64,000 bases of DNA from Bacilli bacterium. GTDB lineage: Bacteria; Bacillota_I; Bacilli_A; RFN20; CAG-826. A model generated the notes under the pieces. It was not told the DNA's origin. It was given only the letters and a program-made list of their open reading frames with translations, and ran no database searches. Of this stretch, positions 3,564 to 58,331 are shown piece after piece (position 1 is the stretch's first letter; every line of letters starts with the position of its first letter). The stretch lies in contig JBGUQI010000011.1 of the NCBI GenBank assembly GCA_045130875.1, positions 73,828 through 137,827 of the forward strand, written 5' to 3'. Made by a program: the position numbers and the translations under genes.

Positions 3564-3601
3564 TACAGTATTACTTTTTTCTAAAACAAAAAGAAAAAAG
3601 A

Positions 3602-3666
3602 ATTCGTAGTACTAGATTATACGGTCTAGTGTAGAGACTACCCACCAATTAGGGAATTATACGAAT
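3602..3666 (-). promoter_or_regulatory. Purine riboswitch aptamer, guanine class (RF00167-like)
   Basis: Minus strand reads ATTCGTA-TAAT-TCCCTAATTGGTGGGTAG-TCTCTAC-ACTAGA-CCGTATAA-TCTAGT-AC-TACGAAT. P1 is 7 perfect bp (ATTCGTA/TACGAAT). It has the UAUAAU junction, a J2/3 of GUCUCUAC (consensus GUUUCUAC) and a P3 of 6 perfect bp. L2 GG and L3 CC are available for the loop-loop kiss. The specificity position in J3/1 is C (A-C-U), as in guanine-responsive members. Confidence 0.85.
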
Positions 3667-3689
3667 GTCGACTTTCTATCGACACATAT

Positions 3690-9962: not shown

Positions 9963-10028
9963 ATATTTATTATATAAAAAATGGATTGGAGAATCCCAAC
10001 CCATTTATAAATAAATGCTTAGAAAGAA

Positions 10029-34135: not shown

Positions 34136-35566
34136 TTAGAAAATTAGTTTTGTTGTATCTATGTCAAACAAATGTAAATTGTTTAAATTGAACCCTAATT
34201 CAATTGTATCACCAATAGAAATTAAATCATTGTCACTAACTTTGCTAATCAAACGATGATTATCTAAAGCAAAGTGTACATAGTATTCTCTACCTAATAA
34301 TTCAGATAATTCCACTTTGGTTTTGAAAGATTTAGAAAGGGTAATCTTCTTTGTGGTATCTTCTGGACGAACAACATCCTCAGGACGAATACCAATATTC
34401 ACCATATGAACTTTACTCTTCACTGCTTCCTGATATTTAGCGAGTAATGGTTCTTCTTTTTCTAATTCTAACTTAACAAAGTTAAGATAATTGGAATCAG
34501 CATATAGTGAATCCTTTTCAACCTTTTCTTTATTAGCTTTTTTCTGAGCGAATTCTTCACCATTTTGAATCTCTTGTTTTAAGAATGCCACTCTTTCAGA
34601 AAGTCTATTGATTTCTGATTCATAAAATTCATCATGTTTTTTAACAAACTCTTTACTCAAAGCAATTGAATAAACATCTCCAATAGATAATTTGCCATTA
34701 TCGTATTTGGCTTCAAAGATATTCATTGCGGGTGAACCGATGAAAGTGGCCACGAAGATATTCGCTGGATTATTGTAAATCTCTCTAGGAGTACCAATCT
34801 GTTGAATATAACCATCTTTCATGACAACGATACGATCCGCCATAGTCATAGCTTCTGTTTGGTCATGGGTAACATAGATTGTCGTAGACTTTAATTCGTT
34901 ATGAAGTCTCACAATCTCACTTCTCATTTGCACTCTGAGTTTTGCATCTAAGTTAGATAATGGTTCATCCATTAAGAATAGATTACTATTTCTAACAATC
35001 GCTCTACCTAAAGCCACACGTTGGCATTGGCCACCAGATAAGGCGCTTGGCTTTCTATCTAAGTAATCAGTTAAGTCCAAAATCTTCGCTGCTTCTTCCA
35101 CTCTCTTTTTAATCTCATCACGAGGGGTGTGTCTCATTCTTAGACCAAAGGCTAAATTGTCATAAACATTTAGATGTGGATATAAAGCATAGTTTTGGAA
35201 GACCATCGCAATATTCCTATCTTTGGGCTCTAAATCATTAGAATATTCACCATTGATATATAAATCACCATAGGTAATCTCTTCTAATCCCGCAATCATT
35301 CTTAACGTTGTGGATTTACCACATCCAGAAGGACCGACAAAGACGATAAATTCATTAGGCATGATATCAAGATTGAAATCATAGACAGCTTGCACGTGGT
35401 TGGGATAAATCTTATTGATGTTTCTTAAGGAAACGAAAGCACCTTCAGGAGCAATCTTATCTTCCTTTCTTAAAACATCGGCTTTTTTAAGCATCTCTTT
35501 ATGAACGCGTTCACGTTCTTTTTGAAGGATTCTTTCTTCTTTGGTTTTTCTTTTAAATAACGCCAT
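34136..35566 (-). CDS. MsmK/MalK/UgpC-type sugar ABC transporter ATPase with N-terminal extension and coiled-coil insert
   Basis: 476 aa with Walker [10 protein letters not shown], signature LSGGQCQR and Walker [13 protein letters not shown]. It has a ~45-aa Lys/Arg/Glu-rich N-terminal extension and a ~90-aa charged insert in the C-terminal regulatory domain. Confidence 0.85.
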
Positions 35567-35571
35567 AACAA

Positions 35572-38091
35572 TTATTCCTTCCTAGCTTTAATTCTATAAA
35601 CACCAGAATCCACGCAAACATTTGCTGGAGACTTCTCTCCATTTAATTCTATCTCATCATAATCAAAGATGAGGTTTGCTTTTGTATTTGCGGGTATTTT
35701 GACTTCAAATTCTACGCAATTCCCTTGTTTTTTCCAATTTGAAACGATTTTGCCTTTAATTGAATCAAAAGAACATTCCACAAAATCCATATCTTCTGGA
35801 ACATGTGGATGAATAGTGATTTCGTTCTTATATAAATCTTCATGAACGATACCACCTAAATAACGATAGAACATCGCATCATAACTACCAAACATCGGGT
35901 GATCAAAACTATCCATGATGTTGAACATCTCAAGTTCCCATCTCTCCCACACTGTGGTGGCACCATTCTTCACCATAAATCCCCATCCAGGATATTCTGG
36001 ATTCTTTAAAGCTTTAAGTGCTAGATCGATATAGCCGTATTCACATAATAAATAGAAGACATGTCTATATCCTTGATTACCACATGTGAGGTGGTAATTA
36101 TTTTTAATAATGTTATCCACCATATTCTGAACAACTTTCTTTTTGTTCTCTTCTGGACAGATACCAAGCGATACCGCAATTGCGTTCTCCGCTTGTCTAT
36201 TAAGAGAATAATATCCCTCTTCGTGATAATACTTTTCGTTCAAGGACTTATCGCTCTCTTTGGCCATCTTCATATATTTCTCAGCATCTAATTTATGACC
36301 AGCAATATCCGCTAAACGGGATAAGACTTTTAAATGCCAATTCAAGAACATAGAAGAGATAAATATTGAATCAGAGAAACTGTCTTCTAATTTATCTGGA
36401 TTTACCCAATCGGCATAATAGTAATAATCCATGACATAGTCATTCTGTCTAGTTAAGAGATAATCAACCCATCTCTTACACCATGGATACTGTTCTTTAA
36501 CTAACTCTACATCGCCATATAAAACATAAGCGTGAAGCGCTAATAAAAGATATGACACACTAGTGGTATCTGCAGGTTGTCCACCGGTATAGAATGGCGC
36601 AGTATCACTAATTGCACCTTCTTCATTCATCGTTTGATTGATATCATTGCTGACCTTGCGATACATCGCGGAACAATCAAAGTTATAAACTTGTTGATAA
36701 GTTCTTGCGGATAAATCATTGAGCCAACCAAATCTCTCATCTCTTTGAGGGCAGTCAGTAAATATACTATGTACATTGTTTTCTTCTGTAACCTTCGCCA
36801 TATGATGGAGTTGATTAATAACTTTATCAGAACAATGGAAATGTCCAGTCTGTCTTAAATTGGTGTGGATATGTTCTCCCACTATTTCTAAGATTTCTGC
36901 TTCACCATCAATGAGGGCTTCCACAAATTGGAATCCATGATAGGTAAATCTTGGAGCCCATTCTTCAATGCCTTCACCTTTTAAAATATATTTATCAATA
37001 CATTTCGCACTTCTTAAATTCAACTGATTGGCATGACCATCTTTAGTAACACCTTCTGCGAACTTCAAAGTGATAGTTGTGCCTTCCTTACCTTTTACTC
37101 TAATTCGGGCCCATCCAGCGAGGTTTTGATGGAAATCGTAAACTATATCATTTTTGGAGAATTCCTTGTAAATCTCGCCTTTAAAGTCGCATAAATGTTC
37201 AATATCAGGGATTTGTTGTAACGTTTTCTTTCCCTTTTCTTCTTGAGTGAGGATGGTATACATCCAACCATTATCCCAAGCAGGAACAAATTCTCTACTT
37301 GTCCAGTTAGGGGCAGTGAGTTTTTCTAATCTCGCATCATAGGTTTCTCCACCATAAATACTATTCTCAATTGTGGGAGAACCAGAAGCCCACCAACCAA
37401 AGCAACAAGTGGAATGATCTTCATATTCTGTGCCATCTTCATATTCAATATAGAACTGGGCTAATAGTTTGCGATGACCAAACCAACCATAACCAACTTC
37501 CACACCGATGATGTTGCTCTTCTTCTCAGATAGAGCATCGGTGAAATTGTAAGCTTTATATAATAAAGTTTGATTATAATCAGTCACGCCAGGAGCTAAT
37601 AAGGCTTTACCAATCTTCTTACCATTAACAAAGAATTCATGGTAACCAAGACCGATGATATACGCTCTGGCTTTTTTAATCTTTTTCTCTTCAAGTTTTA
37701 ATTCTTTTCTGAAGAAAAGTGTTCCACCATTAAAGTTATTAGGAATGGACACCCATTTGCCCTTCCATTCCTCATCCTTCAAAGTGGTTTCAAAATGAGA
37801 AGTCTTTTCTGCCACTTCACCATTTTCGGCTTTGACAATCAATTTGACGAATACGTCATGGCGGGAAGGAATTTCCCTCCCACCATAGACGATATTAGTC
37901 TGTTCATTAGAAGTAATCTCTTTGGAGTCCCAATAATCACCATCATTATCACAAGTAGAACTTACAACAATGCGGTAAGATTGCTGTTTCAAAGAGGTTT
38001 CTGCCTCAAGGATCCACGAAAAGATAAATGGAGCCTCTAAACAAAATGGGTTCTCATTATTATTAATAATGAATGATGATATCTTGAACAT
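35572..38091 (-). CDS. Alpha-L-rhamnosidase, GH78 (paralog of 16494..19052)
   Basis: 839 aa with motifs [21 protein letters not shown] and [12 protein letters not shown]. Collinear similarity to 16494..19052 over its whole length. Confidence 0.9.
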
Positions 38092-41373: not shown

Positions 41374-42651
41374 TTAATTTCTCTTTTCAATTTTTGATGT
41401 ATATACCGCTCCTTTCTCATCTACGAGAGAGGCGTAGTAAAAATTAGCCCCTTCTCTAATTTTTGTTTCTATTATTGTTGTGGTTACTAAATTAGATGCA
41501 TCCAAAGTAGATGATCTCCAAGATGTATCTTTATTAACCACCTCATCCATTGTGAAGAAAATCTCTCCCTCTAATATCTTTCTTCCTTCAGGAATGGTTA
41601 TGGAAAGATGACCTTCATCAATGAATGTAATTTTTAATTTTTCTTTCTTTGCTAGGACATTGTCCGCAAATAAGAATTGTTCCACTCTATCCAAAGCGTG
41701 GGCATGACTATGTAATAGTCTATTAATAACTGCTAAGTAGCCATTCTTCATAGAAGGAACTACTAGAGAAGCAGAATTGATGTTTGAGTATTGATCAGCA
41801 TTACTACCGATGTATAAAAATGGAGTGTTCACATATTTTAGTGGTTCAGCATTATCAAATGGTTCAAAGCTACGATGAGATTCGAGATAGGTTTTAATAG
41901 GAGCGCTATCATCTAACATGTCTGTCATGCAATAGAATGGAATAGCAAAGGCAAACCTATCATCATATCCAGAGATAATGGAGGTAATATATCCACCCCA
42001 AGAAACTCCGCATACGCCAATCTTATAAGGATTTACACCCGCAAAATGATGGAGGAAAGAATTGGCGATAATCGAGGTACGACAAGCATAATGCAACCAT
42101 GTCAAAGTGACATCCTCATTTTCATCGCCGAGATTTTGATTGTGAGGTGCTGTATAGGTAGACGCATGATATAAATTTGCAGGGCCATCACCAATGGTTC
42201 CGGTCTTGTTTGGAACATGTCCTTCTAAATCAATCGCTAAAGCGACATAGCCTCTTTCTTTCCAAGCATTAACCCATTCATAATAAGCGGTACCTCCGCC
42301 ACCATGGAGTAATAACACTGCGGGTTTATCTTTGAGTTCGCCTTCCGGCAAACCTAAGTAGGCGAAAGCATAGCTTTCATGACCGTTATAATCACTTCTA
42401 ATATATAAAGCTTTGCATCCTTGATTATCTAATTCTTCATCAAAGAAATATTCTGGCTCTTGCCAATAAGACGTATCAAAAGGAACGGCATCTATCTCTT
42501 TATAAACTGGCTCGTTATGCATAATTCTTGTCTCCTCTTCTTCACTGCTACTACTGGGTTGAGAATTGGATGAATTTCCACCCTTACCTGAGGTAGAACA
42601 GGCAGCGAGCAATAATCCGACAAATAAAAGTCCCCATCTTTTAATAGCCAT
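41374..42651 (-). CDS. Alpha/beta-hydrolase esterase lipoprotein (paralog of the N-terminal half of 14032..16494)
   Basis: 425 aa with lipobox LLLAA|CSTS and a Ser-rich linker. Motifs AVLLLHGGGGTAYYEW and nucleophile elbow GVSWGG. Confidence 0.75.
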   Translation of the reverse strand: MAIKRWGLLFVGLLLAACSTSGKGGNSSNSQPSSSSEEEETRIMHNEPVYKEIDAVPFDTSYWQEPEYFFDEELDNQGCKALYIRSDYNGHESYAFAYLGLPEGELKDKPAVLLLHGGGGTAYYEWVNAWKERGYVALAIDLEGHVPNKTGTIGDGPANLYHASTYTAPHNQNLGDENEDVTLTWLHYACRTSIIANSFLHHFAGVNPYKIGVCGVSWGGYITSIISGYDDRFAFAIPFYCMTDMLDDSAPIKTYLESHRSFEPFDNAEPLKYVNTPFLYIGSNADQYSNINSASLVVPSMKNGYLAVINRLLHSHAHALDRVEQFLFADNVLAKKEKLKITFIDEGHLSITIPEGRKILEGEIFFTMDEVVNKDTSWRSSTLDASNLVTTTIIETKIREGANFYYASLVDEKGAVYTSKIEKRN

Positions 42652-44476
42652 AATGTAATCTCCCTATCGGCATAGAATCACCAGAGATGTAATAATCCAT
42701 CACATCTTCAGGATGGGTGATGTTATCAGTAATCTTGAATTCGATATCCACGGTATCATTTGCCTCGATTAATGAACGTGGTATCGCTAATTGCATAACC
42801 TTACCATTGATAGCGATGTCGGCCTCACCAACCTTAGTGAAGTTATACCCACCATCGCATCTTTCTACGCTTGCTTTATCGGCGTTCGCGCTTCTATTGA
42901 TGACATAGTTAAATCCCATGAAGTTGTTGTTAGAATCTTTAGTTTTGATAAAGACATTCATGAAGTTCAAATCGTTATTATCTCTTAATGTAATGTCTTC
43001 CAAACATTCAATGTAGAAATATAAATTTGATGCAGAATGTGCCACTTTTGCAGCGGAAATGTCATTTCTGGCGCTATTATCGGTATAACGTAAGCCATTA
43101 ACTGCGCCTTCAAAATCTCTATTGATTGCGTCATGTGATAGATCGGAATAACCCTTAATCACACTCCAAAGTGGAGAGACACCATTTTTGATATCGATGT
43201 TATAGGAAGACTTTTTATATTTCACAAATGGTTCATATTTAAAATCACGAACGTTCTTGATTAGTTGAAGGAGATAATTATCGTTATATCCGCCTTTCAT
43301 CATCTCGATATCACGAGAGTATTCGTAATTATAGACATCCACCATATGCCATGAATCACTACCTACATAGCTCTTGATAGCCATCCATTCATTGAAGGAA
43401 CACACTAAAGCATTAGTGACGTTATAATGGTCATCTAATGCGGTATCCCACATCTGTTGGAAACTCAAGCCTTCATCGATATCACCTTCGATATGACCGG
43501 TCTTATTGTTATAGCCTCTAGAACATTCTGGGTCTTTATAAGAAACAGAAATGCGAGAATGAGAATGCTGCGCCACTGGAACGGCAATAGAGCCATTATG
43601 GATTCTTTGAGGATAATCCCAACTCATCCAAGGAATGGAATTATCATTATGGTTACCATTAGGCCATTCAGATTCTCTGACATCGAAGAATTCACACATT
43701 TCTTCATCTACGAAATTATCCCAACCAGGATAATACTTGGTTTGATCTGACGCCCCATTATTATTGACAGTAATACCGATGATTAATGGTTTTCCGTTAG
43801 GAGCAAACCAAAGGTTTGAATACTTATCAAATTGATAGAATTTATAATATAAGTCTCTTACTGTATCACCAGAATAAGAGTTCGTGTAGAAAGTCACTTT
43901 AGGAATATTCTTTCCTTCTTGATGCCAGGTATTTAATAAGTCTAATAAAGTGGTAATTGAATCTTGGTAGACCACTCTATTGGTCATATCGATACAGATA
44001 TAATCAATACCTGCTGCTCTAAAGAGTTCCATATGTCTAGTTAAAACCCATGGATCTCTGGTGTTGTAATAACCATATAGAGGTTCTCCCCAGAAATGGA
44101 ATTCGTTCATACGAGAATATTCACTATCTTCTGTGGTATATAGATGCGCTCTACCTTCTTCAGTAGATTCCAAAGAAGTAATGTTATAAATCGCTGTTTG
44201 TTGGCTCTTATGTTGTCCTAACCACATGGAATAGAAGAGACCCACATATTTTGTGGATTTTTTAGGACCATCCACTCTTTCAATGACTCTTCCGACTTCG
44301 TCTTCGCCGCATAAGTTATAAAGGGAATAATCTTCCATCGATAAATTACGGTTATCTTCTTCGCCATCTTTTGGACCAGATTGTGAACTACTAGAAGCAA
44401 CACCACTTCCAGTACAGCAAGTTAAAGAAGCAACAACTAAAAAAAAGGGAACTAAATACTTCTTATTAATAGCCAT
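42641..44476 (-). CDS. Lipoprotein, putative glycoside hydrolase of an uncharacterised GH71/GH99/WbsX-like TIM-barrel type plus C-terminal beta-sandwich
   Basis: 611 aa with lipobox (SLT|CC). Blocks: VGLFYSMWLG, FHFWGEPLYGYYNTRDPWVLTRHMELFRAAGIDYICIDMTN, CSFNEWMA, and the C-terminal motif YYISGDSMPIGRLHYGY. Tandem paralog of 44466..46268. Confidence 0.45.
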   Translation of the reverse strand: MAINKKYLVPFFLVVASLTCCTGSGVASSSSQSGPKDGEEDNRNLSMEDYSLYNLCGEDEVGRVIERVDGPKKSTKYVGLFYSMWLGQHKSQQTAIYNITSLESTEEGRAHLYTTEDSEYSRMNEFHFWGEPLYGYYNTRDPWVLTRHMELFRAAGIDYICIDMTNRVVYQDSITTLLDLLNTWHQEGKNIPKVTFYTNSYSGDTVRDLYYKFYQFDKYSNLWFAPNGKPLIIGITVNNNGASDQTKYYPGWDNFVDEEMCEFFDVRESEWPNGNHNDNSIPWMSWDYPQRIHNGSIAVPVAQHSHSRISVSYKDPECSRGYNNKTGHIEGDIDEGLSFQQMWDTALDDHYNVTNALVCSFNEWMAIKSYVGSDSWHMVDVYNYEYSRDIEMMKGGYNDNYLLQLIKNVRDFKYEPFVKYKKSSYNIDIKNGVSPLWSVIKGYSDLSHDAINRDFEGAVNGLRYTDNSARNDISAAKVAHSASNLYFYIECLEDITLRDNNDLNFMNVFIKTKDSNNNFMGFNYVINRSANADKASVERCDGGYNFTKVGEADIAINGKVMQLAIPRSLIEANDTVDIEFKITDNITHPEDVMDYYISGDSMPIGRLHYGY

Positions 44477-46268
44477 AAGTATAACTTAACCTCCCTATTG
44501 GAGCGCAGTCGCCTGAGACATAATAATCTTGGATATCACTTTGTTCTTGGATGTTATCACAAACTTTAATACCCACTTCAAAATGCTTGGCGTCTCTATT
44601 AATCGCACTAAGTGGAATTGAATATTGAATAACGTTATTTTGATAAGCCACATCACCTTGGCCAACTTCAGATGGTCTAAAGTCTTTATTCAATTTTTCA
44701 ATTGAGGCTTTACCATTTTCTCTACTTCTATTGATGATATAGCTAAAGCTAGCGAACGAATCTTCATTATCTCCGATAGAAATCATGACGTTCATCCAAG
44801 CTTTATCAGTAGAAATTGGTTCAGTGATGTCATCTTTAGTTTCAACACGGATATAGAAATTGTTTTCATCATGAGTCACATATGTGTTGACGATGTCATT
44901 TCTATTCGTGGTGTCATAATATCTATCCATTCTATCCGCACGATAGAAATCTCTTTCCATGGCGTCGCCTTCAAAGTCCTTATAAAGGGCTTTCACGCCT
45001 TCCCATTGACTTGCTTCAAAGTTATTTACATCAATCGTATGAGTTTCATATTTATAATGAACTGGTTCAGTAAAGGCATATTTTTTAATATTTCTAGAGA
45101 ATTGGAGATAGAAATTATCACCATATCCACCTTTCATCATTTCCATATCACGGGAATATAATTCATTGAATGTATCAACGAAGAAGACTTGGTCTTCTCC
45201 ATCCACCATCTTCTGGGCAATCCATTCATTCCATCCAGTAACAAAGACATTATTGATACTGTCATAATTATCAAAGACAGTTTTCCATTGTCCTTCGACA
45301 TTCGTGCCCATTCTCGCGGAAGCTTCATCATTTTGGAAAGTCGTATAGTTAAATCCACGACCATGATTAGTGCCACTTCCTTCAGACATTCTCATACCTG
45401 GGTGTTGGGCTAAAGAAACGGATATCGTTCCACTGTAATTTAACTGTGGGTAATCCCAATCCATCCAAGGGAATCCTTCTCTTCTATTGAATCTATTGGC
45501 GTCAGGCCATTGAGATTCTCTGATATAGAAGAAACTACTGATTTCATTAAATTCTTCTTCGGTACAAACACGATACAAATCATCAGCTTGTCCGATGATT
45601 AATGGGTGTTCACCATCCATCCTGTACCAGAGGCTAGAGTAACGATCGTTCTTGTAGAATAAGTCGTAACATCTCTTCATCGTCTGCCCACTGGCGGAAT
45701 TGGTGTAAAACGCCACTTTAGGGACGTTAAATCCCTGTTGTTGATATTTATCTAAAACCGCGAATATCGCGTTGATAGCGTCGGTATAAATAACGGTATT
45801 GGTCAAATCGTAGACCAAGTAGTCGACACCCGCCATTGTGAAGAGTTCAACATGACGAGTAATAACCCATGGATCGGAGGAATGATAATAACCATATAAT
45901 GGCTGTCCCCAATGATGGAACGCCTTGATTGGTGAGCTATCGTTACCTTGGGGATCCCATAATGATTCGGGGTCATTTTCTAGTAATTGTGTAATATCAA
46001 AGATACCGGTGTTATGAGTGCCATGCCATACATGGTAGAAGACACCGACTTTCTTATCTTCTTTTCTTAAATCACCAATTGTGGTGACTCTTCCATATTC
46101 ATCGATACCAGCGATGTTATTGACGGTATATTCTTGAGGGGTGATGTCTCTTTCATCATCCACACGGATAATGGGTTGTTCAGAACTGCTATTATTTTGT
46201 TTCTTGCTATTGCAAGCGGACAAAACCATCGGGATGATAAAGGCAATCAATAACTTTCGACTAAACAT
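44466..46268 (-). CDS. Lipoprotein, paralog of 42641..44476 (putative uncharacterised glycoside hydrolase)
   Basis: 600 aa with lipobox VLSA|CNS. Blocks: VGVFYHVWHG, FHHWGQPLYGYYHSSDPWVITRHVELFTMAGVDYLVYDLTN, TGWNEWIA, and the C-terminal motif YYVSGDCAPIGRLSYTYGY. Confidence 0.45.
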   Translation of the reverse strand: MFSRKLLIAFIIPMVLSACNSKKQNNSSSEQPIIRVDDERDITPQEYTVNNIAGIDEYGRVTTIGDLRKEDKKVGVFYHVWHGTHNTGIFDITQLLENDPESLWDPQGNDSSPIKAFHHWGQPLYGYYHSSDPWVITRHVELFTMAGVDYLVYDLTNTVIYTDAINAIFAVLDKYQQQGFNVPKVAFYTNSASGQTMKRCYDLFYKNDRYSSLWYRMDGEHPLIIGQADDLYRVCTEEEFNEISSFFYIRESQWPDANRFNRREGFPWMDWDYPQLNYSGTISVSLAQHPGMRMSEGSGTNHGRGFNYTTFQNDEASARMGTNVEGQWKTVFDNYDSINNVFVTGWNEWIAQKMVDGEDQVFFVDTFNELYSRDMEMMKGGYGDNFYLQFSRNIKKYAFTEPVHYKYETHTIDVNNFEASQWEGVKALYKDFEGDAMERDFYRADRMDRYYDTTNRNDIVNTYVTHDENNFYIRVETKDDITEPISTDKAWMNVMISIGDNEDSFASFSYIINRSRENGKASIEKLNKDFRPSEVGQGDVAYQNNVIQYSIPLSAINRDAKHFEVGIKVCDNIQEQSDIQDYYVSGDCAPIGRLSYTYGY

Positions 46269-46274
46269 AAATCA

Positions 46275-47168
46275 TTATCCTTTCTTTCCGGTTGTCAAAA
46301 CACCATCGGTGAGTTGTTTTTGGAATATGCCAAATACCACAGCGGGAACGATGGTCATAAAGACACCTGCCGCCATACGGATATGAGCCATCTGGGCAGC
46401 AGCATCGCCTTCTGTGGAATTTAAGAATACGTAGTATGCTAAAGTTCTCGGTGCGCTATCACTGGTTAAATAGACTAATGGTCCATAGAAATCGCCCCAG
46501 TTAGTCATAAGGATAGTCACTGCAATATAAATTAAGATTGGTTTACAGTTCGGTAAGATGATGTGCCAATAAATCTTCCACATCGAAGCTCCATCAGCTT
46601 TCGCGGCATCAATCATATTGTTGGGAATACCCAACATATATTGTCTTAATAAGAAGATGTAAACCGCACCACCACCAAATAAGTTTGGAATAGTTAAAGG
46701 TAATAATGTATCAATCCAATGCCATCTCGCATACATCACATATAACGGGATTTGTGTGGCCACTGCGGGAAGCATCATTGTGAACATCATCAAGATAAAC
46801 ATTACTCTCTTACCAACCCACTCTAACTTAGCGAATGAGAAGGCAATTAATGAGGCTGATAAAAGTGTGGCAATAATGTTAAATCCAATAATAATGCATG
46901 TATTTCCCAGGGCTTTTAAGTAATTTTCATTAGTAAATATAGATAAATAGTTATTAAATTGAGGAACCGCAGGAAGGATGGGAACATTAGGATCGATGAC
47001 TTCATTTGAACTCATCAAGGACTTAGAAACCATGTAGAAATATGGGAACACTAAAACCATTCCCGCTAGAGCCATGATGAGTAAGAAGATAAACACCTTA
47101 CTCTTATTCCACATACGGGTCATATTACTTCTACGACGCGCTTTTTGTGCTAATGATGACATTGCCAT
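46275..47168 (-). CDS. Carbohydrate ABC transporter permease (MalG-type)
   Basis: 297 aa with EAA loop DAAKADGASMWKIYWHIILP. RBS AGGAGG lies 9 nt upstream. Confidence 0.85.
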   Translation of the reverse strand: MAMSSLAQKARRRSNMTRMWNKSKVFIFLLIMALAGMVLVFPYFYMVSKSLMSSNEVIDPNVPILPAVPQFNNYLSIFTNENYLKALGNTCIIIGFNIIATLLSASLIAFSFAKLEWVGKRVMFILMMFTMMLPAVATQIPLYVMYARWHWIDTLLPLTIPNLFGGGAVYIFLLRQYMLGIPNNMIDAAKADGASMWKIYWHIILPNCKPILIYIAVTILMTNWGDFYGPLVYLTSDSAPRTLAYYVFLNSTEGDAAAQMAHIRMAAGVFMTIVPAVVFGIFQKQLTDGVLTTGKKG

Positions 47169-47169
47169 A

Positions 47170-48117
47170 CTAAGCGTCCTCCTGGTAATAAACCCATTTA
47201 CTGGAGATAAACATAATGCCTGTCAAAATTGCGATGACAAGGAATAATAACCACGACAAGGCCGCGGCATATCCGATGTTGCCATTTCTAAAGGCTTCCC
47301 AATACACTTTGACACCATATAGATATAAGGAGTCACCTTCACCACGACCATAACGTGAGGCGAATGTCAAAGTGCCATTATATTGCAAGGTTCCAATGAC
47401 CGACATAATCATGTTATAGAAGATCATTGGTGTGGATAATGGGAGAGTAATATGGATGAATCTCTGGAAGGCATTAGAACCTTCAATCTTCGCGGATTCA
47501 TATAATGAATTAGGAATATTCTTAAAGGCACTGAGCCATAAGACCATGCCTCCACCGATACCCCAGGTATTCATGAAAATTAAGGAAACCATCGCTGTTT
47601 CTGCCGCCCCGAAGAAGGGGAACTTTTGGAATCCTAACATGACGAGGAATTTATTGAATACACCATAGGTCTCATTGGTTAAATCTTTCCAGAGCAAACC
47701 ATTGACGACAGCAGGGATAACGACTGGCAAATAGTAAAGGATTCTAAAGAATCCTGTGAATTTAAATTTCTGATTCACCAATAGAGCTAAAAAATAGGAA
47801 AGCACGATATTAAGTGGAACGGAAATAACAGCATATAAAATGGTATTTCTCGCCACTATCGGCATGCTTCTATCAGTGAATATTCTGAGATAATTGCCGA
47901 AGCCCACAAATTCAGCACTGAAGTCCGCGGCAATATCATAGAGAGAATAGTAAAGAGAAAGGAACATCGGCACAAAAGTAAAGACCGCTAAGCCAATCAT
48001 CAAAGGAAGGTTGAACAACCAGCCTACGTAATTGCGCTTTAAGAATTTGACAAACTTATTCTGCGGTTTGTACTTGCGCACTTTCTTCTGTTCTTTTTGC
48101 TCTCCGCTAATTTCCAT
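47170..48117 (-). CDS. Carbohydrate ABC transporter permease (MalF-type)
   Basis: 315 aa, 6 TM segments, EAA loop ESAKIEGSNAFQRFIHITLP. Confidence 0.85.
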   Translation of the reverse strand: MEISGEQKEQKKVRKYKPQNKFVKFLKRNYVGWLFNLPLMIGLAVFTFVPMFLSLYYSLYDIAADFSAEFVGFGNYLRIFTDRSMPIVARNTILYAVISVPLNIVLSYFLALLVNQKFKFTGFFRILYYLPVVIPAVVNGLLWKDLTNETYGVFNKFLVMLGFQKFPFFGAAETAMVSLIFMNTWGIGGGMVLWLSAFKNIPNSLYESAKIEGSNAFQRFIHITLPLSTPMIFYNMIMSVIGTLQYNGTLTFASRYGRGEGDSLYLYGVKVYWEAFRNGNIGYAAALSWLLFLVIAILTGIMFISSKWVYYQEDA

Positions 48118-48120
48118 TTT

Positions 48121-49491
48121 TTATAGTTTTGCTAAAGCATCCTCTAAATCTAAGACACAAGTTTCAATCGCTTTATCGATTGTTTTACTTCTCTTTAAGG
48201 TGTTGGAGAATAAATCTTTGAAAGCCATATCTAAGTCGCCTTTAATCTTTGGGTCAACGTAACTTAAGAATTCAGGAACGATTTTATATTCTGGACCATA
48301 TGTATATGCGGCTAAGTTAAAATCGGTATAGCCTTCACCCCATTTAGAGGTGCGATAATCTTGTAAATCCTTGCGGATGGATGGTAATTGTAATCCACCT
48401 TCCGCGAGTTTTTCTTGGCCTTCTTTGCTCATCATATAGCTGAGGAACTGCCAGGCTGCGGCTTTTTCTTTGGAGTTTCTGTTAATCGCATAACCCGCGA
48501 TACCAGAACCAATTTTGGGAGCACTCTTGGCGTTGATTAATGGGAAGGAAACTAAGTCGATATTGTTCTTTAATTCTCTTCTTTCCGCAAACAAGGAGAA
48601 GGATGCGGATTGGAATAAGAATGGAGCGGTACCAACTTCGAAGGAGTTACCAGGGGTGACACCGTCTTCGACGATGTATTTGTTTTCCATCATGCTCTTA
48701 ACCATAGTTAAGCATTGTCTGGTTTCTTCACAATCAATTGCGATTCTCCCGTCTTTGGTTAACACATCAGCACCATAGGATCTTAAGATTGGATAGTTAC
48801 AGGATAACCATGTGGTTAAGTTTGCATCGCAGCAATACCAGTCACTCTTACCTTTACCATCAAGATAAGCACGATATTGTGCCATCACATTCATAAAGGT
48901 ATCCCAAGACCAACCATCTTGGATGACGGACATATCGATACCTGCTTGACCTAATAACTTCTTGTTATAGAAAGTCACAACAGTATCACAAGAACGAGGA
49001 ATCAAATAATGTTTGCCTTCCATCGCACCCATATCGATAAAGCTGGTAATGAAGTCTTCTTGCATATTGAAGACGCCGGCTTTTTCACTATTCTTGAAAT
49101 AGGCATCTAATGGTTCGGCAATCTTCGCGGACACTAAATAATAGAAGTCTGGGGAGTTAGACCAAACGATATCTGGTAATGTTCCAGCGAGGTTTTGATT
49201 TCTCACTGTGGATTCCCAGTTATTGACCGAAACATATGATTTTTCAAATGTAATATTGGGGAAATGCTCGCTAAATCCCGCAATACAGCTATCAATCATC
49301 GTGGTTTCATTACTGTTACCTTGAGGGATTAATAGTCTCAATTTGCAGGAATATTCAGGGTCAATAGTAATTTCACCCTCACCTTCATAACTTGAGTCAT
49401 CACTCTTGGGTTTGAAATCGGTGTTAAGACAGCCAGTCAACATAACGGTGACTGCTGCTAACGATAGACCTAACAAAACTTTCTTTTTCAT
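48121..49491 (-). CDS. Extracellular sugar-binding lipoprotein (ABC SBP)
   Basis: 456 aa with lipobox MLTG|CLNT, located directly upstream of the permease pair. Confidence 0.85.
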   Translation of the reverse strand: MKKKVLLGLSLAAVTVMLTGCLNTDFKPKSDDSSYEGEGEITIDPEYSCKLRLLIPQGNSNETTMIDSCIAGFSEHFPNITFEKSYVSVNNWESTVRNQNLAGTLPDIVWSNSPDFYYLVSAKIAEPLDAYFKNSEKAGVFNMQEDFITSFIDMGAMEGKHYLIPRSCDTVVTFYNKKLLGQAGIDMSVIQDGWSWDTFMNVMAQYRAYLDGKGKSDWYCCDANLTTWLSCNYPILRSYGADVLTKDGRIAIDCEETRQCLTMVKSMMENKYIVEDGVTPGNSFEVGTAPFLFQSASFSLFAERRELKNNIDLVSFPLINAKSAPKIGSGIAGYAINRNSKEKAAAWQFLSYMMSKEGQEKLAEGGLQLPSIRKDLQDYRTSKWGEGYTDFNLAAYTYGPEYKIVPEFLSYVDPKIKGDLDMAFKDLFSNTLKRSKTIDKAIETCVLDLEDALAKL

Positions 49492-49503: not shown

Positions 49504-50766
49504 TTAATATTTGACAATGGTAGAAAGAATAGACTGCAAATAAATACGACTGGCATAGTCATTGACATGGTTAATGCCATTCGCAGTCATGTCTTGGTAT
49601 TTTTTGTTTTTATATAGTTCTTTAGAAACATTAAAGACATCCACTAAAGCGGTGCCTTGAATAGAATTGGTAATTTCTCTTTTAATCTTGTTGATGTAAC
49701 TATCAACTTTTTCATAATCATAAATCATGGGGTTAGGTCCAAAGGGTGTAAGGATTAAGAATTCACAATCTGGACATCTATTTCTCACTTCTAAAACGAG
49801 GGAAACCATATTATCTATAAAAGAATTAGGACTCACGCCTGCGCCTAAATCATTAATTCCAAAATGAATAATTAATAAATCAGGATTCTCTTGTGAAACA
49901 TTATAGATTTGGGTGTTATTACATCCCCAAGATGATTGAGTGCCACCCACAGAGAGGTTTGCGCCAGTGATATGAGATTCAAGCTTTTCATTTAGATATG
50001 AAATACTCATATTGAAGAATGTTTCCATAAATGGTTCATGATTAAATTTCTTAGAAGAAGAACAACCTTCTAATACAGAATCGCCAAGACCAACAATTTT
50101 AATGTCTTGGTTATTAGCTAATTTATTTTTTAATTTAGGTAAAGTTTCTAATTGATTGTCAGGGAAGGACGCTAAAGTATCCACGATTTCTCTAATGTCG
50201 TAGACATAAGAAACCTGGATTTGGTGACCATAATATAAATCGGATTCGGTATAATAAGCCGGTCCCATTTGCACACAGTCAGTGGAAATATTAGAAATAG
50301 AACTCACTAATCGATATCCATCAGGAAGGTATTCACCTTTTAAAGTGGAATCTTCTAGATAGGGCATTGTTGAATTTTCAGTACGAATAATTGTCTTGCC
50401 ATCTAATGTATAATCGGTTCCTTCCACATAGTTGTGGGTTTTAAGAGTAAAGTCTTTAATCGCCAAAATCTTCAGAGGAGTATAAGCGAGTTTTCCAGAG
50501 ATAACTCCCGTCTCGCTATCTTTGGATAATAGAACTGTCTCGTTATAGATGACATTCCCTTTCCAAAAAGGATCGGATATTTGCTTATCTTCAAAGGAAT
50601 AAGCTAGACTATCATAATCCTCTACATAATTAGGAAATTTAGTTAAATCAATCTCTTGTTCTTCGCTTTTGCTCTCATCTTTGGATGATGAATCTGGTTT
50701 TGTGTGGGTACAGGAAACACACAAAAACAAACAGACAGGCAACAAAAAATTACAAATTTTTCGCAT
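49504..50766 (-). CDS. SGNH/GDSL esterase lipoprotein with N-terminal beta-sandwich (paralog of the C-terminal two thirds of 14032..16494)
   Basis: Lipobox LCVS|CTH and SGNH blocks VGLGDSVLEG, LSVGGTQS and IHFGINDLG. The ATG at 50766 (MRKICNF) has GGAGA 9 nt upstream; the ORF-track start at 50805 is less likely. Confidence 0.75.
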   Translation of the reverse strand: MRKICNFLLPVCLFLCVSCTHTKPDSSSKDESKSEEQEIDLTKFPNYVEDYDSLAYSFEDKQISDPFWKGNVIYNETVLLSKDSETGVISGKLAYTPLKILAIKDFTLKTHNYVEGTDYTLDGKTIIRTENSTMPYLEDSTLKGEYLPDGYRLVSSISNISTDCVQMGPAYYTESDLYYGHQIQVSYVYDIREIVDTLASFPDNQLETLPKLKNKLANNQDIKIVGLGDSVLEGCSSSKKFNHEPFMETFFNMSISYLNEKLESHITGANLSVGGTQSSWGCNNTQIYNVSQENPDLLIIHFGINDLGAGVSPNSFIDNMVSLVLEVRNRCPDCEFLILTPFGPNPMIYDYEKVDSYINKIKREITNSIQGTALVDVFNVSKELYKNKKYQDMTANGINHVNDYASRIYLQSILSTIVKY

Positions 50767-50892
50767 AAAAGAAGTTCTCCTACTCTTAAAATTACATAAG
50801 CGCACACAAAAATAAACATAGAAAAAGTAAAATAAATCATTTTTTATAAGAATTTTATAAATTTTGATTATAATGTAGATATAGGTATTATT

Positions 50893-51792
50893 ATGAATAG
50901 TGAGTCACTAGGAATTGCTTTATATCAAACCAATAATATTGAAGATCCCTCAAAGGTCATTCAGTTAGGTTATCATACCCACAACACCATTGAGTTTTCT
51001 TATATCCATTCAGGAACGATTGATTTTTGGTATCAAGGAAAAGATAAAGAAATTAAACAAACAATCCTAAAGAATCAAATGATTATCATTTTTCCTAATG
51101 TCAGTCACCGCTTTGATATCAATAATTCATTAATCAGTATTGGTATGGAACTATGCTTACCTAATTATGAAAGTGACATCTACTCATTTTTAAATCAATC
51201 ACCATTCATCCATGAATTCTTAAACGACTATTCCTTCAGTATAAACAACCCTTTTATCATTATTAATGATAGCGAAAATCTGTTCACATCTCTTCTGGAG
51301 ATGAAAAGATATTCCAAATTCAATGATTTAACCGATATAGAAAAAGAGAAATTCCAACTTAAATTAAAAAGTCTTCTTTTAGATATCGTTCAGTGCGAGA
51401 AGATTTCTCCCACACAAAAGAAATCTAACTTTATTATCAATAAATCCTTGGGTTACATTGAAAGAAACTATTTTAGAGACATTAAAGCTCCCGATGTATC
51501 CGCTGCCGTAGGTGTATCTTATTCATATTTAAGGAATCTATATCAAACCATATTACATACAAGCATTAATGACGCGATCAACAAAAGTAGAATCGAAAAG
51601 GCTAAAGATTTAATTAAAAGTGGACTACCTTTAAAGACCGTCAGTGAACAAGTAGGATTTAAAACCCAACAACATTTTGATAAAGTCTTCAAAAAGTTTG
51701 AAAAGACATCCCCCACTGATTTTAAAAAGAATGTCAAAATCGATACAAATAGATATTTTGTGGTTAATAAACCAAATCTATATGATTTTTAA
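50893..51792 (+). CDS. AraC-family transcriptional regulator
   Basis: 299 aa with an N-terminal cupin-like domain. The C-terminal HTH pair reads IKAPDVSAAVGVSYSYLRNLYQ...LKTVSEQVGFKTQQHFDKVFKKFEKTSPTDF. Divergent from the second operon. Confidence 0.85.
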   Translation: MNSESLGIALYQTNNIEDPSKVIQLGYHTHNTIEFSYIHSGTIDFWYQGKDKEIKQTILKNQMIIIFPNVSHRFDINNSLISIGMELCLPNYESDIYSFLNQSPFIHEFLNDYSFSINNPFIIINDSENLFTSLLEMKRYSKFNDLTDIEKEKFQLKLKSLLLDIVQCEKISPTQKKSNFIINKSLGYIERNYFRDIKAPDVSAAVGVSYSYLRNLYQTILHTSINDAINKSRIEKAKDLIKSGLPLKTVSEQVGFKTQQHFDKVFKKFEKTSPTDFKKNVKIDTNRYFVVNKPNLYDF

Positions 51793-52276: not shown

Positions 52277-54454
52277 ATGAATAAAGGTTTTATCACTATT
52301 CCCACTGACGCTGATTTCGTGGAAGAAACCAAAAAATATATAAAGATGTGGGGTGCCGATGCAGTTAGAGACTGCGATGGTGTTTCTCTCCCTAAAAACG
52401 TTCAAGATTTTAACTGTGAAGTATACAAAGCTTACTTCATCGTTAGAGAAGATCATGAATACGCTAAGAAGCATCATGAATATCTTCAAAATGTCGCTTT
52501 GATAACCGATAGATATACCGCTTTAGAAGATGAATTAAGAATTGACCTTTTAAAGAATATCTTTAAAGACTCCATTGAAGTCAATGAAGATAGAAAAGAA
52601 AAGTATTGGCAAGTCATTGATAGAACCACAGGAAAGATTCATAAAGATTGGGAATACTTAGGTAACAATATTGTCCTTATTAAGAACCCTATTAAATATC
52701 ACGAATATACCGTATCCTTCTTTGGAAGAAATATCTGGGATCCTGTCCAGATATATAACTACCATTCCAACAATTGGAAAGATGTTCCTAAAGATTTGGA
52801 TTTAGACCCTATATATCCAGAAGCTTTAAACCATATGTTAAAGAGAATGGAAGATTGGTGTATTGCTCATCCAGAAGTCACTGTAGTTAGATTCACCACT
52901 TTCTTCTATAACTTCTTCATCGTCTATGTCACTGGTTTAACCCAGGGATATTGGGATTGGCATACCTACGCGATGAGTGCCTCTCCTGAGATGTTTGACT
53001 ATCTCAAAAAAGAATTCGATTTCGATGTCACATTAGAGGATGTTGTCACCGGCGGAACATATGCTTCAAAATTCGAAATTCCCAGCGAAAAGACCAGGAA
53101 ATACATCGATTTAGTGCAAAAACTATGCTGCAGATGGGCCAAACAATTCGTCGATATCGTTCATAAATATAACAAGAAAGCAATGATGTTTGATGGCGAC
53201 CATCGTATTGGTACAGAACCATATAATCCCTATTTTGCCTCAATCGGATTAGATGCGGTTGTCGGTGCCCCTCACAGTGGGCCATATATCCGTTTATTAA
53301 CCGATATGACAGGCATCAAATACACAGAAGGTAGATTGAATCCTTATTTCTTCCCCAATGAATGTCCAAGTGATGCAGAGGGTGTGAAGTTCCTCACGAA
53401 TAACTGGAACAGTGAGAAGAGAGGTCTTCTAAAGAAGTGCATCGATAGAATTGGCTTCGGTGGTTATCTCCGCCTCGCGGATACTTATCCAAATTTCTGC
53501 AAGCTCATCAAAGATGTCTGTGATGAATTTAGATTAATCAAAGAACATGTTGGCAAAGAAGGCGCCTACTCTCATGTGAAGATTGCTGTCATTTCCTATT
53601 GGGGAAGATTATTCTCCTGGATGACTAACGGCACATTCACTGATGACACAAAACCAGAAACCATTGGTTACAATACATTCTTTAACGCAGTCTGTGGTCA
53701 ACCTGTGGATGTTAGTTTCATTTCCTTTGATGAAGTAATGAATGGTGATTTATCTAAGTATGATGTTTTGGTGAATACTGGTTTACCAGGATCCGCCTTC
53801 CAAGGTGATTATTATTGGAAGAATGAAAAGCTTCTCTCTAGAATTAGAGAGTTTGTCGCAAATGGAGGTGGCTTTATCGGTATCGGCGAACCATCTGGAT
53901 ATAAATATCAAGGCAAGTATTTCCAATTAGAAGATGTCCTTGGTGTACAAAAAGAAGTTGGTTTCACCTATCCTAGAAACAAATTCTTCCCAGAAAAAGA
54001 TTTGAAGCATTGGATTATCAATGACTATGATGTCAATAAGATTAGATTTGGTCCTCAAGGTTATGGAGTTTATCCTTTAACCGCGAATGTCTTAGCTAGC
54101 TCCCCAAATAACTTCAATGAAACCACAAGATTATTAACTGGTGGGGATGTCTTCTTATCCACCAATGAATTTGGCAAAGGAAGAGCGGTATTTATCTCCT
54201 CACTATTAGATTGTTTTGAATCTTATAGATTAATCTATAAATCTCTATTATGGGCTTCTCATAAAGAGAACTTATATGAAAGAGCCTTATCTAAAGATAT
54301 CACCACAGATTGTTACTATTATGAAAAATCAAATAGCTACGCAATCTTCAACAGCGGGATTACCACTGTCACCACTGATTTCTACGATATTAAAGGAAAC
54401 AAAAAAGAAATCACCGTCGGTCCTAAAGAGATTCTTTGGATTAATGGTAAGTAA
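52277..54454 (+). CDS. GH112 beta-galactoside phosphorylase (lacto-N-biose/galacto-N-biose/Gal-beta-1,4-L-Rha phosphorylase family)
   Basis: 725 aa. It is collinear with the remembered Bifidobacterium LNBP sequence: the start ...IPTDADFVEETKKYIKMWGADAVRDCDG, then YWQVIDRTTG, HEYTVSF...IWDPVQIYN, VVRFTTFFYNF, AMMFDGDHRIGTEPY, GLDAVVG and IKYTEGRLNPYFFP. Confidence 0.9.
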   Translation: MNKGFITIPTDADFVEETKKYIKMWGADAVRDCDGVSLPKNVQDFNCEVYKAYFIVREDHEYAKKHHEYLQNVALITDRYTALEDELRIDLLKNIFKDSIEVNEDRKEKYWQVIDRTTGKIHKDWEYLGNNIVLIKNPIKYHEYTVSFFGRNIWDPVQIYNYHSNNWKDVPKDLDLDPIYPEALNHMLKRMEDWCIAHPEVTVVRFTTFFYNFFIVYVTGLTQGYWDWHTYAMSASPEMFDYLKKEFDFDVTLEDVVTGGTYASKFEIPSEKTRKYIDLVQKLCCRWAKQFVDIVHKYNKKAMMFDGDHRIGTEPYNPYFASIGLDAVVGAPHSGPYIRLLTDMTGIKYTEGRLNPYFFPNECPSDAEGVKFLTNNWNSEKRGLLKKCIDRIGFGGYLRLADTYPNFCKLIKDVCDEFRLIKEHVGKEGAYSHVKIAVISYWGRLFSWMTNGTFTDDTKPETIGYNTFFNAVCGQPVDVSFISFDEVMNGDLSKYDVLVNTGLPGSAFQGDYYWKNEKLLSRIREFVANGGGFIGIGEPSGYKYQGKYFQLEDVLGVQKEVGFTYPRNKFFPEKDLKHWIINDYDVNKIRFGPQGYGVYPLTANVLASSPNNFNETTRLLTGGDVFLSTNEFGKGRAVFISSLLDCFESYRLIYKSLLWASHKENLYERALSKDITTDCYYYEKSNSYAIFNSGITTVTTDFYDIKGNKKEITVGPKEILWINGK

Positions 54455-57380: not shown

Positions 57381-58331
57381 TTAGCCAATAAATCCGCAAA
57401 TTGCGGAGATAATATCCTCATCTTGCTCCGTTAAACGAGTAAGGGAGACATCTTTAAAGAAATTGATTCTATCCTCATCGGTACGAATCTTTTTCTTTTT
57501 TAATAATTCGTTATATTCATCAAATACCTCATTCATATAATTAACTGCATCTAAAGAGTAATTAGGGTTATGTTTCTTACCAGTTACTCTCAATGTTTTA
57601 ATACGAGGGTTATCAATTTGTTCTACTTCTTTTAGAGCAATATTATAGGGCACCATTTGGTCATCATCAGATTGGATAAAGAAGATATCATCTTTAGTGG
57701 TCTTAAGGTATTCAAGATTATTACTTATATAATAATCTGGCTCCATCTTCTTTTCATATTTAACAACGCCTTTATAAATAAATTTAGATTTCACAAAAAC
57801 ACTCATTAGAGACTCGATAGATAAGAATCCGGACATTATCACTGCTTTAGATATTTCGTTTCTTAAATTGATGATATTCAAAGCGGTATATCCCCCTAAT
57901 GAGTGGCCCACTAACACAATGGGTTTATCTAATTTTAGATAATCCAATAAATCATTAACATCTCTTGTGGGTTCATTTAAGGATCTCATATTCTTTCCTT
58001 TTGATTCCGCACAGCCCATATAATCCAAAGTTAAAACTTTGTATCCCGCTTTCGCTAAAAACTCAATTTCTTTTAAATAAGCTGTATGCCCTGGTCCTAA
58101 GCCATGTAAGAAAAGAACAATCTTATCTTTTCTATAGTTATCGTAATAATAGAAGAAATATTTAATTTCTATTCCTATGGAGTTGGTAAAAGAGTTAACT
58201 TCTTGTTTTAGGCCTTTAAAATCTGAATAGGAATAATAAGGAACTCCTACTTCTTTATCATAACGACAGACAAATTGTTTCTTATATAAATAAGATACGA
58301 TACTCATGGATATATTGTGGCACAACCACAT
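57381..58331 (-). CDS. Cytoplasmic alpha/beta-hydrolase (esterase/lipase-like)
   Basis: 316 aa with oxyanion region LFLHGLGPGH and nucleophile elbow VGHSLGG. No signal peptide. Confidence 0.7.
   Translation of the reverse strand: MWLCHNISMSIVSYLYKKQFVCRYDKEVGVPYYSYSDFKGLKQEVNSFTNSIGIEIKYFFYYYDNYRKDKIVLFLHGLGPGHTAYLKEIEFLAKAGYKVLTLDYMGCAESKGKNMRSLNEPTRDVNDLLDYLKLDKPIVLVGHSLGGYTALNIINLRNEISKAVIMSGFLSIESLMSVFVKSKFIYKGVVKYEKKMEPDYYISNNLEYLKTTKDDIFFIQSDDDQMVPYNIALKEVEQIDNPRIKTLRVTGKKHNPNYSLDAVNYMNEVFDEYNELLKKKKIRTDEDRINFFKDVSLTRLTEQDEDIISAICGFIG

Follow-up and report, generated by a model that had tools for sequence, protein, structure and literature searches.

A family of surface lipoproteins from a rhamnosidase gene cassette, proposed as a third branch of the GH99/GH71 glycosidase lineage

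The window analysed here is a 64,000-nt stretch of the genome of a Bacilli bacterium (assembly GCA_045130875.1, contig JBGUQI010000011.1, positions 73,828 to 137,827) that contains a gene cassette with a cytoplasmic GH78 α-L-rhamnosidase and an ATP-binding cassette (ABC) importer. Directly after the importer permease genes lie two adjacent genes, which encode paralogue B (600 aa) and paralogue A (611 aa). On balance, we favour the view that A and B belong to a new family of glycosidases, are tethered to the cell surface, and probably act in endo mode; they would feed rhamnose-capped or rhamnose-rich oligosaccharides through ABC import to the cytoplasmic GH78. With similar, somewhat better than even confidence, we propose that the family to which they belong constitutes a third, family-level branch of the GH99/GH71 (β/α)8-barrel lineage, distinguished by an altered catalytic motif and a fused C-terminal β-sandwich.

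Two adjacent paralogous genes

An initial annotation, made by reading the DNA without database searches, had described two adjacent open reading frames of 611 and 600 aa, and both were found where it placed them on the minus strand (Table 1). Their products align over the full length with 38% identity (E 4e-143), a paralogy far beyond chance. The motif blocks that it had quoted are all present in A and B: VGLFY..W.G in A and VGVFY..W.G in B near the N-terminus, followed by FH(F/H)WG.PLYGYY...DPWV.TRH.ELF..AG.DY...D.TN, (F/W)NEW(M/I)A, MKGGY.DN(Y/F), and the terminal YY(I/V)SGD..PIGRL.Y.Y. One detail needed correction, as the block given as MEMMKGGY reads IEMMKGGY in A. Both proteins had also been called lipoproteins. 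Taking as a lipobox a signal peptide that ends in [LVI][ASTVI][GAS]C, B carries a canonical one (VLSA/C, Cys19), whereas the N-terminus of A is signal-peptide-like with an atypical lipobox (SLTCC); the family consensus has a conserved cysteine near position 20.

The 11-nt overlaps attributed to these genes exist at the B/A junction (44466-44476) and the junction of A with the downstream α/β-hydrolase gene (42641-42651), but B is separated from the upstream permease gene by a 6-nt gap (46269-46274). The two overlaps are the same sequence, ATGGCTATTAA. About 13 nt 5' of each stands GGGAGG or GGGAGA, a Shine-Dalgarno-like element within the codons of the PIGRL motif, and the downstream ATG at both junctions sits within the conserved C-terminal Y-G-Y-stop codons. 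The identical overlaps and the Shine-Dalgarno-like sites suggest translational coupling, with the junction copied along with the tandem duplication. An ATG occurs at the equivalent position (-8) in 43 of 126 family copies of related loci; in Anseongella, the junction between the family gene and the α/β-hydrolase gene is also an 11-nt overlap, with a sequence different from that found here.

A large family of hypothetical proteins

Neither A nor B matches any Pfam-A model (E ≤ 1) or any NCBIfam model, which bears out their earlier description as members of an uncharacterised family. A word-indexed search returned 1,145 homologues, and those that carry a name in their source are without exception labelled 'hypothetical protein'. 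When 1.84 billion cluster representatives were searched exhaustively with a profile, 3,057 matched at E < 1e-3 and 1,129 at E < 1e-30, with family clusters counted at 50% identity. Relatives are encoded by 507 species-representative genomes, and the carriers include gut and rumen Clostridia, Erysipelotrichaceae and Acholeplasmataceae as well as soil Chitinophagaceae and Sphingobacteriaceae. The closest relative belongs to an uncultured rumen Erysipelotrichaceae metagenome-assembled genome (locus L004), with 79% identity and an identical gene order. We speak of a new family relative to Pfam, NCBIfam, the Protein Data Bank (PDB), and the literature; CAZy and dbCAN lay outside this comparison, and a recent assignment may exist there. 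Literature searches for a GH99-like rhamnose-related family, DUF5722, rhamnanase, and endo-rhamnosidase returned nothing relevant except phage tailspikes.

The family is extracytoplasmic, judging by the hydrophobic N-terminus of about 90% of its full-length members (230/256). Longer members are fused to Big_2, fn3, Flg_new, or galactose-binding-like modules; such fusions are typical of secreted glycan-active enzymes, and we count them in favour of A and B being surface glycosidases.

Fold and distant homology to GH99 and GH71

An AlphaFold2 model of A, built from the family alignment (predicted local distance difference test score, pLDDT, 90.6; predicted template-modelling score, pTM, 0.90), has three parts: a disordered linker (aa 1-34), a barrel of eight alternating β/α units with an additional β-hairpin after β8 (about aa 45-415), and an all-β domain (about aa 440-611). 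The last of these, where pLDDT is mostly above 90, corresponds to the conserved C-terminal β-sandwich anticipated in the initial annotation. In a Foldseek search of the PDB with this model, ranks 1-25 were GH99 structures (E ~2e-6), followed by GH71 α-1,3-glucanases (E 2e-5 to 4e-5); in the April 2026 copy of the database, this search placed no solved structure closer than GH99. The similarity to GH99 is modest, with target-normalised TM scores of 0.47-0.51 at ~15% identity. The C-terminal domain has no Pfam match and gave weak Foldseek matches to the carbohydrate-binding module (CBM) CBM9 (1I82 and 7NWO; E ~3e-3, TM ~0.4) and to the γ subunit of ethylbenzene dehydrogenase (E 7e-4).

Sequence comparisons point in the same direction. 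A single-sequence search of the PDB gave a marginal match to human endo-α-1,2-mannosidase (E 0.016). In hmmsearch against the PDB, a 40-sequence family profile matched only GH99 structures (E 1e-4), over the two blocks GxYxSxDP…H and SFNEW, and a 100-sequence profile matched GH99 with E 9.7e-8 in one stretch that pairs profile positions 129-361 with GH99 residues 95-338. Profile-profile comparison with hhalign gave probabilities of 95.2% and then 97.5% (E 7.5e-12) over β1-β5, a range set by the available GH99 sequences, which are fragments of at most 258 aa; the alignment at β8 rests on hmmsearch. The Pfam GH99 model PF16317 was weakly matched by 4 of 40 members (best E 1.9e-6), below its gathering threshold. 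The GH71 model PF03659 matched none of 40 members at E ≤ 1, so that GH71 is detected by fold alone. The initial annotation had proposed a TIM barrel of the GH99/GH71/WbsX type. Profile searches, Foldseek, and the AlphaFold2 model support the assignment to a glycosidase family with GH99/GH71 logic, whereas nothing was found in favour of the WbsX part: PF14307 (WbsX, or 'GH99-like domain') had no match at E ≤ 1 in A, B, or 38 homologues.

The family shares with GH99 (BtGH99 4ACY/4ACZ, BxGH99 4AD1, human MANEA 6ZDC) a (β/α)8 barrel with homology across β1-β8 and the blocks FYxxWxG, GxYxSxDPxVxxxH, and (S/G)(F/W)NEW. It differs in that the 'HIEP' strand of GH99 reads 'FYTN', in an added β-hairpin, an acid-rich β8-α8 loop, and the C-terminal β-sandwich, and in a genomic context of rhamnosidase and esterase genes rather than mannan or N-glycan genes. 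GH71, the second-best structural match and a member of the same superfamily as GH99, resembles A and B in having an N-terminal (β/α)8 barrel followed by a C-terminal β-sandwich (AnGH71C 9FNF, Agn1p 8YFH/9M6L) (PMC12394665). However, the TM score to GH71 is only ~0.38, and A and B lack both the PF03659 match and an α-glucan context.

Residues of the catalytic face

The GH99/GH71 lineage is defined by a D/E-x-x-E dyad at a conserved position, which reads EW[H/G]E in GH99 and DYGE in GH71; the second glutamate of the dyad is the general acid in both families, although GH99 acts through a 1,2-anhydro-sugar intermediate and GH71 by classical inversion (PMC12394665, PMC11025385). In HMMER alignments, the family NEW motif aligns residue for residue with the NEW of GH99, which places E363 of A on E329 of BtGH99, the first acid of the dyad, and lends weight to the earlier suggestion that the NEW glutamate is a catalytic candidate. 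BtGH99 E332, at +3, corresponds to Ala366 of A. Thus, where a barrel and a catalytic acid pair had been sought in the predicted fold, the barrel is present but the second dyad acid of GH99 and GH71 is absent.

Conservation was counted over 270 diverse homologues in the numbering of A. Residue 363 is glutamate in 266 of them, whereas position 366 is alanine in 251 and aspartate or glutamate in none (0/270), giving the family motif E-W-(M/V/I)-A in place of EWHE or DYGE. Invariant in all 270 are N166, W364, D380, and D399; D163, N362, and D389 are kept in 269 and E391 in 266, while Y596, G599, and P603, in the C-terminal domain, are each changed in at most one homologue. E268, in an RESxWP motif, was considered as a catalytic acid and discarded, being conserved in only 170/270. 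In the model, the near-invariant residues lie at or just after the C-terminal ends of the strands, namely D163/N166 (β3), N199 (β4), Q303/H304 (β7), and N362-E363-W364 (β8), with D380-D399 in the β8-α8 loop, where D380 and the S387-D399 segment form a near-invariant acid cluster. They are thus predicted to occupy the canonical active-site face of a TIM barrel.

A and B both look catalytically competent, and neither resembles a decayed copy, because both retain every one of these catalytic-face residues. E363 is probably catalytic, judging by its alignment and conservation, and its partner would be expected among the near-invariant carboxylates D389/E391, D380, D399, or D163; alternatively, the acid cluster around the β8-α8 loop could be a metal site. 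Since the second dyad acid is absent, the GH99 mechanism is not simply transferable, and the altered dyad places the family in neither GH99 nor GH71.

The rhamnosidase cassette and its conservation

The cassette in the window is a single tightly packed minus-strand array that runs from a GDSL esterase gene through a MalK-type ATPase gene. A promoter and terminator scan of the cassette found fewer promoter-like sites than in shuffled sequence. A lipobox or signal peptide is present on A, B, both esterases, and the solute-binding protein, and none on GH78. The α/β-hydrolase matches solved structures only around the nucleophile elbow (MHETase-like, CE7-like), and the GDSL esterase gave only a marginal SGNH-esterase match in a PDB sequence search (E 0.09). 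The remaining surface protein, of 1072 aa, was considered as the possible real depolymerase. Its AlphaFold2 model (pLDDT 74.5) is an all-β chain of immunoglobulin (Ig)-like domains with no domain of catalytic size, and Foldseek matched it to S-layer and adhesin arrays only, which rules out that role; the protein is judged non-catalytic and probably serves in glycan binding or as a scaffold. With this neighbour being an Ig-repeat protein, the cassette has no candidate extracellular glycosidase other than A and B. The earlier statement that no other extracellular backbone-cleaving enzyme is encoded therefore stands for the conserved cassette, but not for the whole window, where a second cassette encodes a secreted DUF5722 protein and other uncharacterised secreted proteins.

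Synteny was assessed by tblastn of the cassette proteins against 79 related loci, the closest of the 507 and hence a sample biased toward relatives of A. In Bacillota, the order GDSL esterase, solute-binding protein, first permease, second permease, B-type, A-type, α/β-hydrolase, Big2 protein, GH78 recurs in dozens of genomes, carried by Erysipelotrichaceae, Acholeplasmataceae, Bacilli, and many gut and rumen Clostridia. Where the full 8-kb flanks were available, GH78 lay within 8 kb of a family gene in 51/54 loci, and a GDSL/SGNH esterase was found in 36/54. Of the 79 loci, 43 have two family copies and 5 have three; among 41 adjacent pairs, 37 place the B-type gene upstream and the A-type downstream. 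The A/B duplication is old, the paralogues having diverged anciently, and the two are presumably not redundant.

In Bacteroidota (Anseongella, Proteiniphilum, Terrimonas, Parapedobacter, Niabella), the family gene lies inside SusC/D polysaccharide utilization loci (PULs), together with a DUF4998/F5_F8_type_C/DUF5013 lipoprotein, a GDSL esterase, an α/β-hydrolase, and one or two GH78s; some of these loci add RhaT, rhaM, a class II aldolase, an AP_endonuc_2 protein, or DUF5722. The AP_endonuc_2 protein, a xylose-isomerase-like TIM barrel of 323 aa, recurs between the family gene and GH78 in three Bacteroidota loci (L003, L019, L083); the Bacillota cassette lacks it. This protein could act on some portion of the substrate other than rhamnose.

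What recurs across phyla is a quartet of family gene, GH78, and two esterase types. No polysaccharide lyase (PL), GH28, GH105, or other sugar-specific glycosidase recurs in the annotated loci, and no PL, GH28, GH105, or GH106 gene was seen in the cassette or those loci. This combination speaks for a pathway whose main harvest is rhamnose, taken from a glycan or glycoconjugate with ester decorations. Described systems for rhamnogalacturonan I (RG-I), rhamnogalacturonan II, ulvan, and gum arabic carry PL, GH28, GH105, or GH106 enzymes; as no uronic-acid enzymes accompany the family, its substrate need not have an RG-I-type backbone. In other respects the cassette resembles known GH78-centred rhamnoside loci, whether ABC-type in Bacillota or SusC/D-type in Bacteroidota, which combine a cytoplasmic or periplasmic GH78, esterases, an importer, and an AraC or anti-σ regulator; here, however, the A/B family is the only candidate depolymerase.

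Proposed function and alternatives

In the pathway that we favour, A and B would be tethered to the cell surface as lipoproteins beside the GDSL and α/β-hydrolase surface esterases and the Ig-repeat protein, where their task, after or alongside de-esterification, would be to fragment a rhamnose-containing, ester-decorated glycan or glycoconjugate, most likely by endo cleavage. The fragments would then be imported by the adjacent ABC system and finished by the cytoplasmic GH78 α-L-rhamnosidase. Several points weigh against this proposal. The canonical general acid is missing, and activity of A and B depends on a putative substitute; the structural similarity to GH99 is modest; literature searches found no biochemical data for any family member; the synteny sample favours relatives of A; and co-location with GH78 shows membership of a pathway, not the bond that is cut.

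As to that bond, one possibility, which we regard as unlikely but worth serious consideration, is that A and/or B are endo-α-L-rhamnosidases (rhamnanases) that cut within α-L-rhamnosyl runs of an O-acylated rhamnan or other rhamnose-rich polymer (examples are algal rhamnan and the rhamnans of bacterial cell walls, O-antigens, and S-layers), with GH78 alone finishing the products. GH78 is the sole known glycosidase of the cassettes and PULs, often in several copies, and single Bacteroidota loci carry RhaT, rhaM, and a class II aldolase with no enzymes for other sugars alongside. The chemistry is also suggestive, in that the conserved E363 is the equivalent of the GH99 base, and α-L-rhamnose has the manno configuration, in which O2 is axial and stands trans to the leaving group at the anomeric carbon, an arrangement of which GH99 makes use. 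However, the GH99 general acid is absent, and L- and D-manno sugars are mirror images, so that GH99 subsite geometry is not transferable. In addition, the literature search linked no work on rhamnan or rhamnanases to the family, and many carriers are gut or rumen bacteria of hosts on fibre-rich diets, for which plant glycans are the more obvious source. Should the rhamnanase activity be real, the endorhamnosidases of phage tailspikes (P22, Sf6) would be functional analogues only, since these are trimeric β-helix proteins with a fold unrelated to that of A and B.

We give about the same low weight to cleavage of a non-rhamnosyl linkage, whereby A and B would release small rhamnose-capped units that GH78 splits into rhamnose and a common sugar. 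They could do so as a diglycosidase that frees Rha-Glc or Rha-Gal from acylated plant glycosides or saponins, or as an endo-enzyme that cuts beside Rha-substituted residues. GH78 alone would suffice in the cytoplasm if the remainder were a common monosaccharide, and acylated plant glycosides fit the two esterases. Structurally, the cassette GH78 is closest to DtRha, an enzyme active on flavonoid rhamnoglycosides, and a GH112 galactoside phosphorylase is encoded next door on the opposite strand. However, GH112 lies outside the conserved cassette (0/79 loci), and the CBM-like β-sandwich, the Ig-repeat protein, the F5/8-type-C lipoproteins, and the multi-modular family members suggest polymeric substrates.

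A bolder extension, which we put forward as speculative and rather improbable, is that the family represents a new glycoside hydrolase family at the CAZy level, in which the GH99 base (E363) is kept and an acid or metal is recruited from the β8-α8 loop (D380, D389, E391, D399). A and B would then be the first cellular endo-α-L-rhamnanase, possibly employing GH99-style neighbouring-group (1,2-anhydro-sugar) chemistry, and the B/A pair would represent two linkage specificities.

Replacement of the canonical general acid by alanine throughout the family, together with the location of A and B as surface lipoproteins encoded directly after transporter genes, would also be consistent with catalytically dead barrels that serve the ABC importer in the manner of surface glycan-binding proteins (SGBPs). 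We consider this improbable. About a dozen polar or acidic residues of the catalytic face, the first dyad glutamate among them, are invariant across more than 1,000 clusters, which exceeds what binding alone usually imposes; moreover, a solute-binding protein and an Ig-repeat surface protein are already encoded in the cassette, which apart from A and B would have no extracellular depolymerase. Finally, although GH99 and GH71 provide the nearest structures and the only detectable sequence relatives, it is very improbable that A and B are ordinary divergent GH99 endo-α-mannosidases/mannanases or GH71 α-1,3-glucanases, given a family motif of EW[M/V/I]A rather than EW[H/G]E or DYGE (PMC11025385), scores below the Pfam gathering thresholds, identity of ~15%, and a GH78 and esterase context in which no mannosidase or glucanase partners were seen.

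Other features of the window

A second rhamnoside cassette occupies 12383-32573 on the minus strand (Table 1). Its DUF5722 protein has no PDB or literature match, and its 1333-aa CBM_X2 protein has no PDB sequence match. DUF5722 may be another uncharacterised glycan-active family in the same pathway as A and B, because it directly adjoins the GH99-like family gene in several Bacteroidota loci (L021, L026, L032, L059). With the AXE1+GDSL fusion taken as a single gene, the two cassettes and their flank hold four or more esterase genes, in addition to an α/β-hydrolase gene at 57381-58331; this number points to heavily acylated substrates.

Two further carbohydrate-related genes flank the first cassette on the plus strand, GH112 and a GH127-like gene; in other genomes, the conserved cassette includes neither of them. 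Gal-β1,4-L-Rha phosphorylases are among the members of GH112, and on this ground the neighbour could be linked to rhamnose-containing plant glycans. At the start of the window, a purine riboswitch aptamer lies upstream of genes for a PnrA/Bmp-family binding protein (2320-3507) and an ABC ATPase (526-2274), which probably form a purine nucleoside uptake operon. Of the two paralogous Y_phosphatase3 proteins, the one at 61044-62222 is translationally coupled to an 885-aa Big_3/LapB-repeat protein (58390-61047).

Table 1. Coordinates of the genes, protein segments, and other features discussed (positions in the 64,000-nt window).
Feature	Position	Strand	Remarks
GDSL/SGNH esterase lipoprotein	49504-50805	-	First gene of the cassette
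Solute-binding lipoprotein, ABC importer	48121-49491	-	
Two permeases, ABC importer	47170-48117, 46275-47168	-	
Paralogue B, 600 aa	44466-46268	-	Lipoprotein; GH99/GH71-like barrel and C-terminal β-sandwich
B: N347-E348-W349	45222-45230	-	Followed by I-A; Ala at +3, as in A
Paralogue A, 611 aa	42641-44476	-	Lipoprotein-like N-terminus; disordered Ser/Gly-rich linker to ~aa 34
A: (β/α)8 barrel, ~aa 45-415	43232-44344	-	AlphaFold2, Foldseek, hmmsearch, hhalign
A: D163-M-T-N166	43979-43990	-	C-terminal end of barrel strand β3; D163 in 269/270, N166 in 270/270
A: N362-E363-W364	43385-43393	-	E363 aligned with first acid of GH99 EW[H/G]E dyad; Ala366 at +3
A: S387-R-D389-I-E391-MMKGGYND399-N	43277-43318	-	β8-α8 loop; model and conservation
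A: C-terminal β-sandwich, ~aa 440-611	42644-43159	-	Invariant YYxSGDxxPIGR tail; AlphaFold2 and conservation
α/β-Hydrolase lipoprotein	41374-42651	-	HGGGG oxyanion motif, GVSWGG nucleophile elbow; 5' end overlaps A by 11 nt
Secreted Big_2/Ig-repeat surface protein, 1072 aa	38116-41334	-	C-terminal membrane anchor
GH78 α-L-rhamnosidase	35572-38091	-	No signal peptide; cytoplasmic
MalK-type ABC ATPase	34136-35566	-	Probably powers the importer
AraC-family regulator	50893-51792	+	Divergent; probable cassette regulator, judged by position
Second cassette: two GH78s	29964-32573, 16494-19052	-	Cytoplasmic
Second cassette: secreted protein, 1333 aa	25963-29964	-	Four CBM_X2 modules
Second cassette: solute-binding protein, 648-aa permease, 282-aa permease	within 12383-32573	-	
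Second cassette: DUF5722 protein	19036-21540	-	Secreted
Second cassette: AXE1+GDSL double-esterase lipoprotein	14032-16494	-	
Second cassette: protein of 543 aa	12383-14014	-	Secreted; no family match
SASA-family carbohydrate esterase	11281-12222	-	Sialate O-acetylesterase-like, SGNH; beside second cassette
GH112 phosphorylase	52277-54454	+	TIGR02336 equivalog, 651 bits
GH127-like β-L-arabinofuranosidase-family protein	55648-57375	+	Flanks the cassette
Purine riboswitch aptamer	3587-3684	-	RF00167, 48.4 bits
Two paralogous Y_phosphatase3 (tyrosine-phosphatase-family) proteins	8910-10004, 61044-62222	-	At either end of the carbohydrate region

Significance

The GH99/GH71 lineage is a textbook case of one scaffold with two mechanisms, to which the proposed assignment of A and B, if true, would add a third branch with a different catalytic arrangement. 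A large family of 'hypothetical proteins', comprising some 1,100 clusters at 50% identity and present in at least 507 bacterial species, would gain a name and a function, and the missing depolymerase step of a widespread rhamnose-harvesting pathway would be filled. The assignment would also improve the annotation of carbohydrate-active enzymes in gut metagenomes and might provide a tool enzyme for rhamnose-containing glycans.

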